Source: Escherichia phage SkaterBoy_Bas90. Taken from it: 64,000 nucleotides of DNA. The DNA lies in sequence record PQ850626.1. The stretch is one strand, 5' to 3'. Below, one piece after another: positions 28,341 through 50,412 of the stretch. The position numbers and the translations under genes were made by a program. How positions within the stretch are numbered: position 1 is the stretch's first letter; every line of letters begins with the position of its first letter. The notes under the pieces are model-generated. The model ran no database searches, was not told the DNA's origin, and saw nothing but the letters and a program-made list of their open reading frames with translations.

Positions 28341-28660
28341 GCGACGTTAACCTCTTTATGAAGTCTGTAAACAGCTGTCGCCATACAAGCAACAGCTTCG
28401 TTATGTGGGAGATGCATACCTGTAGAACCATCCCAATCTTTAAACTCGTTGTCAAAGACTCCAGTAGGTTCTGGATACAGAGATTGCAACTCAACCAAAT
28501 CGTTAGCAACTTGTTGCCATTTATCATCAGACCAGATAGGGTCATCCAACCAGTAATACAAATAGGAATGGATGATCAATTGCCTTCTATGACGATTGAT
28601 TACTTCAGCGGGACTTATTTCACTTCCATTTGAAGTCCTAAATGTATTACTGTCAATCAT
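28337..28660 (-). CDS. hypothetical protein
   Basis: 107-aa ORF. Confidence 0.3.
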   Translation of the reverse strand: MIDSNTFRTSNGSEISPAEVINRHRRQLIIHSYLYYWLDDPIWSDDKWQQVANDLVELQSLYPEPTGVFDNEFKDWDGSTGMHLPHNEAVACMATAVYRLHKEVNVA

Positions 28661-50196: not shown

Positions 50197-50215
50197 AATT
50201 ACCTCCTATTAGATT

Positions 50216-50331
50216 TGGTGGACTATCTGGAATCGAACCAGAAGCTCACTAAGAAAGTAATTCCCACTGTTATAAAAGCACTTGCCTCAACAGGGATACA
50301 CTAACTCTGGTGCCGCACCCATACTAGCCCT
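50216..50331 (-). ncRNA. tRNA-like fragment (intact T-arm and CCA-type 3' end, but no canonical acceptor or anticodon stem)
   Basis: - strand ends ...TCTGGTTCGATTCCAGATAGTCCACCA (T-stem, GTTCGATTC loop, 3' CCA); no cloverleaf could be completed by hand. Confidence 0.3.
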
Positions 50332-50336
50332 AAATG

Positions 50337-50412
50337 TGGTGCGCCCTACAGGACTCGAACCTGTAACCAATAGCTTAGAAGGCTACTGCTCTATCCATTG
50401 AGCTAAGAGCGC
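50337..50412 (-). tRNA. tRNA-Arg, anticodon UCU, 3' CCA encoded
   Basis: Hand-folded cloverleaf on the - strand: acceptor GCGCTCT/AGGGCGC, D-arm GCTC-AATGGAT-GAGC, anticodon stem GTAGC/GCTAT with loop CUUCUAA, T-arm ACAGG-TTCGAGT-CCTGT, discriminator A, CCA. Confidence 0.8.

Follow-up and report, generated by a model that had tools for sequence, protein, structure and literature searches.

What occupies the gap between the single tRNA gene and the adjoining lipoprotein gene in Escherichia phage SkaterBoy_Bas90? The window analysed here, 64,000 nucleotides (nt) of sequence record PQ850626.1, is 100% identical to Escherichia phage vB_EcoP_DE5 (MW741821; Kuravirus, Gordonclarkvirinae), a phiEco32-like podovirus of ~77 kb. 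Within a long array of small minus-strand early genes it carries a block of 116 nt (50216..50331), called the element below, that ends like a tRNA and directly follows tRNA-Arg(UCU). A preliminary description had offered three explanations, namely a degenerate tRNA, a tRNA with an unusual insertion, or a tRNA-like structural RNA, and it is the last that our results support, the element being a conserved module that has a minihelix with ACCA and no anticodon loop. Judged by sequence comparisons, it very probably encodes a tRNA mimic and is not a remnant. The fuller reading that we favour, with a probability of roughly 45%, is that the element is a functional gene for a processed, non-decoding tRNA mimic that can probably be charged with alanine.

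On the minus strand the tRNA-Arg gene ends ...GGGCGCACCA and is followed by CAUUU, a single A, and then GGGCUAGUAUGGG...UCUGGUUCGAUUCCAGAUAGUCCACCA, the last base of which is 50216. The CAUUU spacer (5 nt, 50332..50336, minus strand), placed by alignments, separates the tRNA-Arg CCA from the conserved block, whose edges were set by a 122-nt indel and by identity across phages, and which we number e1 to e116 (window coordinate = 50332 - e). The mature RNA is predicted to have 115 nt, from G+1 to CCA-3' (50216-50330, minus strand). The upstream neighbour, predicted to lie in the same transcript, is a canonical tRNA-Arg(UCU) with an encoded CCA (50337..50412, minus strand; ARAGORN, and Rfam RF00005 at 72.4 bits). 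This tRNA-Arg was all that ARAGORN found in the 64-kb window, the element remaining uncalled at default, -ps90, -ps80 and -i settings, and it was also the only Rfam match at gathering score, with nothing on the element at E<=10 either. Thus neither relaxed ARAGORN settings nor covariance models call a normal tRNA at this site, and in published papers on Kuravirus genomes only one tRNA is reported and the element goes unmentioned. A descriptor of our own, which combined a consensus T-arm, an acceptor strand of 6-7 nt, NCCA and a complementary 5' strand within 40-125 nt, matched the window at two places, the tRNA-Arg and the element, versus a mean of 0.005 matches across 200 shuffles. The tRNA-like anatomy of the element is far beyond chance.

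All parts of the element lie on the minus strand. The acceptor stem is formed by a 5' strand GGGCUA (e2-e7, 50325..50330) and a 3' strand UAGUCC of only 6 nt (e107-e112, 50220..50225), which together give 6 base pairs (G-C, G-C, G•U, C-G, U-A, A-U) with pair probabilities of 0.97-1.0 in the unconstrained ensemble; the third base, G50328, pairs with U50222 as a G•U. After the stem come an A73-like discriminator and an encoded CCA (ACCA, e113-e116, 50216..50219), within the same CACCA junction that is seen in element-less phages. The T-arm (e90-e106, 50226..50242; UCUGG/UUCGAUU/CCAGA, loop at 50231-50237) is invariant in all copies and has a 5-bp stem and a 7-nt loop that matches UUCRANN, including the equivalent of G53-C61. 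The T-stem/loop and CCA-type end that had been noticed earlier are therefore real, and the T-arm is perfect, although the alanine-type G•U/ACCA and the acceptor length of 6 rather than 7 bp had been overlooked. The earlier proposal of a 5' strand GGGCTAG about 119 nt upstream was correct as to the strand (GGGCUA), whereas the distance is 115 nt from the CCA end. The stretch from T-loop to ACCA is 11 nt versus the canonical 12, and the ARAGORN drawing of the element uses an A×A mismatch as a 7th acceptor layer, leaving no discriminator.

Between the two halves of this minihelix lie a junction region, GUAUGGGUGCGGCACCA (e8-e24, 50308..50324; folds and alignments), which holds the variable site G16A, a long imperfect hairpin in the place of the anticodon arm (e25-e81, 50251..50307) and, as placed by the folds, an 8-nt linker, AGUGAGCU (e82-e89, 50243..50250), that connects the long arm to the T-arm. 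The long arm has ~20 bp in 57 nt and a 4-nt apical loop, AAGU, and folds at -14.9 kcal/mol (z = -2.14; 5 of 200 shuffles were equally stable). An anticodon-type loop of 7 nt with U33 and a purine at 37 was found at no position of this arm, so the RNA would have no anticodon and, lacking an anticodon arm, could not decode. The junction can be drawn as a small D-like hairpin, which gives a four-way junction, or with the rod extended to e16-e88 and GUAUGGGU single-stranded, which gives a three-way junction as in transfer-messenger RNA (tmRNA). The linker can alternatively pair with e16-e22, which lengthens the rod; a 3-bp D-stem with the loop GUGCGGCA is drawable, but is abolished by the alternative rod fold. 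If the junction is a single-stranded analogue of the D-loop, it carries the AUGG motif common to tmRNA 5' ends.

The absence of a regular cloverleaf, which had been claimed at the outset, is borne out by this anatomy, as there is neither a 7-bp acceptor nor an anticodon stem with a 7-nt loop, and the claimed excess of ~40 nt over a 76-nt tRNA is also correct. Could the element then be a decoding tRNA that is interrupted by a small removable intron or insertion? The length (76 + ~40 nt) would fit, the extra ~40 nt do sit where an anticodon arm would be, and a weak 5-bp stem can be drawn in the anticodon register (e27-31/e80-84; G•U, U•G, U-A, A-U, G•U). That stem, however, is ~9 kcal/mol less stable than the long-arm fold, its pair probability is ~0.001, the arm holds no loop of the U33/purine-37 kind, and the ARAGORN intron mode returned nothing sensible. 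An insert of 48-58 nt is also far below the size of a group I intron (200 nt or more), no Rfam intron family matched, and group I introns are to our knowledge the only tRNA introns in bacteria and their phages. The idea of a tRNA with an unusual insertion thus describes the shape well but fails for the tRNA itself, and we regard an interrupted decoding tRNA as highly improbable.

Comparison with related phages bears on whether the element is decaying. The whole element is present in ~29 of roughly 120-150 related phage records, and the carriers span three genera, Kuravirus, Suseptimavirus and Nieuwekanaalvirus; blastn found no match in 5,426 complete E. coli genomes. Phages MN03 and phiEc_1 read ...GGGCGCACCA|AAUCUAAUAGGAGG, with the ribosome-binding site of the lipoprotein gene directly after tRNA-Arg. 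Relative to them the window has exactly 122 extra bases that end in their own ...GUCCACCA, with CACCA on both sides, and the same ...CACCA|AAUCUAAUAGGAGG junction follows the element here and tRNA-Arg in the element-less phages. By these alignments the element is a discrete presence/absence module at one site and not a remnant. In six other phages it is 97.4-100% identical to the window (the copy of phage YF01 has 2 differences), while in the same phages the tRNA-Arg is 46-100%, the upstream coding sequence (CDS) 29-94% and the lipoprotein gene 39-97% identical; where the flanks are most diverged, a near-invariant element stands beside a tRNA-Arg of 46-50% and flanking CDSs of 29-39% identity. 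In Bas91, HC25922 and YF01 it lies beside entirely different tRNA-Arg genes, at least three different ones being paired with it overall, and the spacer in these three phages is 10-11 nt of AUUUU(U)AAACA, unlike CAUUU. Conservation begins at e1/e2 and ends at the CCA, the spacer and 3' trailer being variable, so that the edges of the conserved block are the predicted mature ends. Such a pattern lends no support to the earlier label of a remnant or degenerate tRNA. Variation is confined to four sites: the junction has G16A and the apical loop A49G, G25A turns a G•U into A-U, and A74G turns a U-A into U•G. These changes are all structure-neutral in the long-arm model, but the estimated chance of this is ~0.3, so it is no evidence. 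All eight element copies read have the G•U and the ACCA unchanged.

The acceptor end suggests which amino acid the RNA might carry. An encoded ACCA would direct the RNase P cut to just ahead of G50330, where the helix begins on its 5' side, and with this 5' end the element presents G1-C72, G2-C71, G3•U70 and A73-CCA, the positions that give tRNA-Ala and tmRNA their alanine identity. In the work of Hou and Schimmel, McClain and Foss, and Francklyn and Schimmel, G3•U70 together with A73 reportedly suffices for charging by E. coli alanyl-tRNA synthetase (AlaRS), which is said to hold in minihelices and regardless of the anticodon. Among 954 dereplicated tRNAs called by ARAGORN in the phage loci gathered here, G3:U70 occurred in 45 of 50 tRNA-Ala versus 15 of 904 other tRNAs, in which U70 was paired with A3 158 times. 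Since AlaRS reads G3•U70 and A73 without an anticodon, the element RNA would probably be charged with alanine by the host enzyme. It resembles tRNA-Ala, and the minihelices that AlaRS accepts, in having all of these identity positions on an acceptor/T-arm stack; it differs from tRNA-Ala in the missing anticodon arm, in having 6 rather than 7 acceptor pairs and in being uncalled by ARAGORN and Rfam. Position 4:69 is C-G, as in viral tmRNAs and not as in E. coli tRNA-Ala.

A possible source of this end was found in a tRNA of another specificity. The 3' 36 nt of the element (50216-50251: T-arm, 3' acceptor strand and trailer) are 92% identical to a tRNA-Gln of Klebsiella phage Mineola (locus L005, 1493-1536), of a type that occurs in ~120 T4-like Klebsiella/Enterobacter phages. 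Set against this tRNA-Gln, the discriminator G is missing from the element, whose 5' strand has A for U at position 1 and G for A at position 4; the missing discriminator and A4->G jointly make an alanine-type reading out of a glutamine-type acceptor, A4->G being the change that creates the G•U. As the blastn E value is only 3e-3, shared ancestry is possible but not established. The Mineola tRNA cluster itself has unannotated gaps of 160-250 nt (L005 881-1135 and 1210-1372) that could hold more tRNA-like RNAs.

Because the alanine identity set is also that of tmRNA, the element was compared with tmRNAs, including those without a CDS. In the literature CDS-less tmRNAs are recognised in two plastids, in the mitochondria of jakobids and in a single phage, mycobacteriophage DS6A (Hudson, Lau & Williams 2014, PMC4131195; PMC11915505), and the DS6A RNA is reported to inhibit host tmRNA when expressed in E. 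coli (via PMC4131195, PMC11915505). Like this RNA, the element is phage-encoded and short, with a G3•U70 acceptor, A73 and a canonical T-arm, has AUGG after the acceptor, one internal helix joining its halves and no tag frame, and can be drawn with the same topology of acceptor, loop, helix and T-arm. CDS-less tmRNA is the only kind with experimental evidence of function, namely the inhibition of host tmRNA. The first four acceptor pairs and the ACCA of the element match 36 bona fide viral tmRNAs, and two viral tmRNAs start GGGCTAGTCATGG and GGGCTAGACATGG, where the element has GGGCTAGT-ATGG. In contrast to CDS-less tmRNA, the element has an acceptor of 6 rather than 7 bp and a much longer internal arm, and both the conserved D-loop analogue (..AUGGUUUCGAC, with the motif UUUCGAC) and the GAC linker before the T-arm are absent from it.

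The element junction reached 2.8 bits on a matrix of the tmRNA D-loop, a score that 99.7% of 979 tRNAs fail to reach but that every tmRNA surpasses (minimum 7.0, mean 16.5), as do the DS6A RNA (9.5) and the short uncalled RNAs of 66-69 nt from uncultivated phages, here called minis, that are described further on (7-17). On a matrix of the 3' GAC linker it scored -9.3, the tRNA median, a figure of little weight since this matrix is unreliable for minis of the 11-nt geometry, which are genuine tRNA-like domains (TLDs) and yet low-scoring. A covariance model, R1, built from the spliced 5' and 3' TLD halves of the 36 bona fide viral tmRNAs, gave the element 16.6 bits (E about 0.8) over the 3' 50 nt only, a score by which membership in the tmRNA family is rejected, although the model penalises a long insertion. 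With the same model the DS6A RNA scored 48.4 bits, the 66-69-nt minis 40.6-59.5, ordinary tRNAs 20-35 and the tRNA-Arg of the window 24.5, and the other long RNAs of 11-nt geometry 14-20. A full-length tmRNA was also rejected, as ARAGORN -m found nothing and the only frame is not tag-like. This 11-codon frame (50287-50322, minus strand; AUG-GGU-GCG-GCA-CCA-GAG-UUA-GUG-UAU-CCC-UGU-UGA = MGAAPELVYPC*) has no Shine-Dalgarno sequence and does not resemble a tmRNA tag, both natural variants inside it are non-synonymous, and it is probably there by chance. The element thus bears a faint tmRNA-like trace but fails as a member of the family, and may be a far-diverged derivative of a tmRNA or a convergent form. 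In the course of this comparison the TLD-only tmRNA of DS6A was located at 28478-28560 (locus L072, JN698994), in the gap between gp33 and gp34, where it is unannotated in GenBank (R1, 48.4 bits, as above); DS6A also encodes an RtcB-like RNA ligase (gp76).

Several observations weigh against the view that the element is a functional mimic. The R1 model rejects it, so SmpB binding cannot be assumed. The minimum free energy fold pairs CCAGAG with CUUCUGG and loses the T-arm, the tRNA-like fold being 5.6 kcal/mol less stable; real tRNAs commonly show minimum free energy folds other than the tRNA-like one. The G3•U70 depends on the 5' end being G50330, whereas the ARAGORN register puts the G•U at 4:69 and leaves no discriminator. 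When a 17-nt anticodon stem-loop was put in the place of the long arm ARAGORN called a full tRNA, but shuffled interiors were also called in about half of the trials, so the test is non-specific and the claim of a D-arm is withdrawn. With only four variable sites there is no statistically meaningful covariation, phiEc_1 does without the element although its flanks are 98% identical, and the near-identity across genera could reflect recent lateral spread and not purifying selection. Since endonuclease genes adjoin the site in Bas91 and YF01, lateral spread of the whole cassette is possible.

These last points fit a different explanation, that the element is a non-functional passenger, a fragment derived from a phage tRNA or tmRNA gene that was recently spread by recombination among co-infecting Gordonclarkvirinae, perhaps together with homing endonuclease genes, and whose near-identity merely reflects its youth. 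A tRNA-Arg(UCU) always fills the slot upstream of the lipoprotein gene, but its sequence comes in at least four mutually unrelated versions (among them window 50337-50412, L003 1435-1509 and L007-L010 about 1405-1481), each of which ends ...GCCA/ACCA + AAU(C/U)AA(U)UAGGAGG, and judged by these versions the slot is a hotspot of tRNA exchange or recombination. A homing/HNH endonuclease CDS lies upstream of the element in Bas91 (L013 1-137) and YF01 (L195 495-1010) and overlaps the 5' end of tRNA-Arg by ~10 nt, a placement reminiscent of segB inside the T4 tRNA cluster. The patchy presence in ~29 records, with close relatives that lack the element and are otherwise locally unchanged, the lack of a significant selection signal in the four substitutions, and the match of the 3' 36 nt to the Klebsiella-phage tRNA-Gln, a hint of chimeric origin, could all be explained in the same way. 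A passenger would not, however, be expected to keep the T-loop, the G53-C61 equivalent, the acceptor pairing, the G•U and the ACCA all intact and invariant, nor to have a variable spacer and 3' trailer on either side of conserved edges that coincide with the predicted mature ends. Moreover, the element persists beside three different tRNA-Arg genes, with or without an endonuclease gene, and a diverged relative (L018), as well as many analogous RNAs, are kept within phage tRNA clusters. We consider a mere passenger unlikely, though of real weight. The tRNA-Arg of this slot is itself not annotated in several GenBank records (DE5, XT18 and SU10).

Downstream, the CCA of the element is separated by 8 nt (AAUCUAAU) from the Shine-Dalgarno sequence AGGAGG (50202-50207, minus strand; sequence) of an open reading frame (ORF) for a phage lipoprotein (49897-50196, minus strand; Pfam PF24052 Phage_lipoprotein, E=7e-35). 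No promoter- or terminator-like sites were found between tRNA-Arg, the element and the lipoprotein gene, which places the element inside a polycistronic early transcript, and any mature RNA must come by processing. This arrangement raises the possibility that the fold serves only as punctuation in cis, recruiting RNase P and 3' enzymes upstream of the lipoprotein ribosome-binding site, the excised RNA itself having no role. The lack of an own promoter or terminator and the 8-nt distance from CCA to Shine-Dalgarno would suit such a signal, as would the CCA-AAUCUAAUAGGAGG junction, which also follows tRNA-Arg in the element-less phages. Yet for that very reason tRNA-Arg gives the same site at the same distance in those phages, so that a second site adds nothing obvious, and a mere RNase P handle would need neither an invariant 57-nt arm nor a G•U at the third pair. 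Processing punctuation as the sole function is improbable in our judgement.

For the functional mimic that we prefer, the following course can be proposed. The element would be transcribed together with tRNA-Arg and the downstream lipoprotein gene, RNase P would cut 5' of G50330, and trimming from the 3' side would halt at the encoded CCA to leave a stable 115-nt RNA, which, going by the identity rules, host AlaRS would charge with alanine. We speculate that this RNA acts as a mimic or decoy for the readers of the acceptor/T-half of tRNA-Ala and tmRNA, such as AlaRS, EF-Tu, SmpB and the ribosome rescue machinery, and with a helix of 11 layers in place of 12 it may be poorly suited as a substrate for later steps. 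Interference with tmRNA-SmpB ribosome rescue is our leading guess for the target by analogy, and is favoured because the CDS-less tmRNA of DS6A sets the best precedent; it remains speculative.

An alanine-type acceptor end would also suit a dedicated amino-acid carrier, an RNA that is charged with alanine, stays off the ribosome for want of an anticodon and serves as donor to a phage or host transferase. Fem transferases use a non-proteinogenic tRNA-Gly in a comparable manner. The Mom protein of phage Mu, which uses Gly-tRNA as donor, provides a precedent for a phage enzyme with an aminoacyl-tRNA donor (PMC13219725), and the phages studied here encode an amidoligase/ATP-grasp cluster and a nucleotidyltransferase with a sub-threshold PolyA_pol match. 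But no aminoacyl-tRNA-dependent transferase of the GNAT, Fem or Mom-like kinds was identified in them, the amidoligase/ATP-grasp and nucleotidyltransferase genes are presumably core genes that are also found in element-less phages, and the element is an isolated indel with no co-transferred protein gene, all of which makes a carrier more improbable still than processing punctuation. The nucleotidyltransferase (456 aa, PHROG 12715; 32771-34138, minus strand) matches the PolyA_pol head domain at 18.7 bits, under the cut-off of 23, and has no PDB or NCBIfam match; as this head domain belongs to the superfamily of CCA-adding enzymes and poly(A) polymerases, the protein might act on tRNA 3' ends.

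Other phage and bacterial RNAs resemble the element in part. The stable species 1 and 2 RNAs of T4 are processed along with tRNAs, and their function is unknown. In T4 the arrangement is similar, as tRNA-Arg(UCU) is followed one base later by rnaD (119 nt) and then by rnaC (139 nt; the two at L006 1909-2172), and rnaC likewise has a closing terminal stem, long internal hairpins and a canonical T-arm, GGGUUCGAAUCCC. Unlike the element, rnaC has neither an encoded CCA nor a clean G3•U70 acceptor, and rnaD has no T-arm. Homology to rnaC or rnaD was rejected, blastn at word size 7 finding only an 11-nt match in the T-loop (E=0.5). YrlA and the bacterial Y RNAs (RF02553) were also rejected, with a weak match of 14.1 bits versus a gathering score of 69 that lay mainly on tRNA-Arg; in Y RNA the tRNA-like module is internal to a Ro-binding terminal stem, whereas the acceptor end of the element is terminal and free. 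A tRNA with a group I intron was rejected on the insert size and the lack of an Rfam intron match given above.

To see if the 11-nt geometry occurs elsewhere, IMG/VR was scanned for a T-loop, a 5-nt stem strand, 6 nt ending in GUCC, and ACCA. Of 39 loci so found, 35 were uncalled by ARAGORN, and most lie in phage tRNA clusters and have an exactly complementary GGGCnn 5' strand 57-131 nt upstream. In the uncalled RNAs, after dereplication, G outnumbers A at the third acceptor position by 15 to 3, and Rfam assigned no family at threshold to ten RNAs of this geometry. The same pattern with the canonical 12-nt spacing gave at least 122 IMG/VR matches; 101 among the matches listed were called, comprising 25 tRNA-Ala, ~45 full-length tmRNAs with ordinary ...ALAA-type tags and, for the rest, other tRNAs. 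Since 12-nt matches are mostly called and 11-nt matches mostly not, the 11-nt class stands apart and mostly escapes the finder. Viral contigs often carry full-length tmRNA genes (L074-L193), with ~45 among the first 122 listed matches, and 32 of 43 that were extracted are of the permuted two-piece form.

Among the longer RNAs, L018, L048/L067, L057, L061 and L068 share with the element the GGGCnn...nnGUCC-ACCA ends and the 11-nt spacing, a length of 105-131 nt, the absence of a tag frame and an AU-rich leader, and are likewise uncalled by ARAGORN and Rfam. The nearest, L018 (131 nt, inside a phage tRNA cluster), has an acceptor identical to that of the element, followed by AUAUGG where the element has GUAUGG, and its T-stem shows a compensatory change from U-A to G-C, while its interior is different. 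The interiors of these alanine-type RNAs of uncultivated phages cannot be aligned with that of the element, and no convincing tag ORF was found in the element or its long relatives. Three members of 112-115 nt (L048 4984-5096, minus strand; L067 9252-9363, minus strand; L068 4728-4842, plus strand) have AAGGAAGCAC(G/A)U(U/C)GCG in common as a motif of their interiors, a hint of a second subfamily that is unrelated in this part to the element. Exact or anchored patterns of the element itself gave no match in IMG/VR or the JGI metagenomes. A looser metagenome pattern gave 4 matches, all by chance in GC-rich coding sequence, and a scan of bacterial genomes gave 12, all by chance within CDSs. It is tempting to group the element with the longer uncalled RNAs as a new class of anticodon-less, alanine-accepting tRNA mimics of phages that have an 11-layer helix, are distinct from tRNA and tmRNA, and serve to manipulate ribosome rescue or a different pathway in which the acceptor half of alanyl-tRNA is read, but this wider proposal, drawn from shared sequence features, is tentative and clearly less secure than our reading of the element itself.

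The scan also brought up RNAs that are closer to tmRNA. The 66-69-nt minis (L043 4082-4147, L054 10328-10396, L059 5242-5309, L046 1508-1576 and L050 135-203, all on the minus strand, and L063 5538-5606 on the plus strand) lie in tRNA clusters of uncultivated phages, are uncalled by ARAGORN and Rfam and score 40-60 bits on R1. They have the TLD hallmark GGAUUCGACG...GCGGAC-T-arm-ACCA, with the halves joined by a short hairpin, and look like genuine further CDS-less phage tmRNAs, a form so far reported only for DS6A. An identical mini RNA of 57 nt, GGGCGAGAGCAAGGATGCATCCTAGGTTATAGGGGTTCGATTCCCCCTCGTCCACCA, scoring 32 bits on R1, was found in five viral contigs (L047 49-105, L051 7308-7364, L053 4911-4967 and L069 5180-5236, plus strand; L066 12872-12928, minus strand), in each case directly after a CCA-ending tRNA; in two of these contigs, L053 and L066, another TLD-like gene that is likewise uncalled (73 nt, 43 bits) begins 4 nt further on. 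R1 pointed to further uncalled TLD-like or alanine-type RNAs at L019 793-874, L045 8193-8273 and L060 3461-3540 (minus strand) and at L071 162-219 (plus strand). The acceptor of the L019 RNA, GGGCUAG/CUAGUCC, equals that of the element except for an intact 7th pair, and no CCA is encoded there. The IMG/VR minis, L048 and L018 had no match in cultured phages.

What is new here is the unannotated element, the nearest known kinds being the tRNA-like stable RNAs of phages and the CDS-less tmRNAs. Standard annotation, with ARAGORN, Rfam and the published counts of one tRNA, misses both the element and the CDS-less tmRNA-like genes in phage tRNA clusters. The carriers include easily grown, tractable E. 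coli phages (SU10, and Bas91 of the BASEL collection), and phiEc_1 is near-isogenic and without the element, so this natural pair with and without it makes the question directly testable; we know of no such pair for the T4 species 1 RNA, a puzzle for half a century. Codon usage or evasion of tRNA-targeting defences is the usual explanation for phage tRNA genes, and both require an anticodon. A conserved, probably chargeable mimic without an anticodon would suggest that phages put the tRNA shape to another use, which may be to tamper with tmRNA-SmpB rescue, or to sequester or feed enzymes that read the acceptor end.

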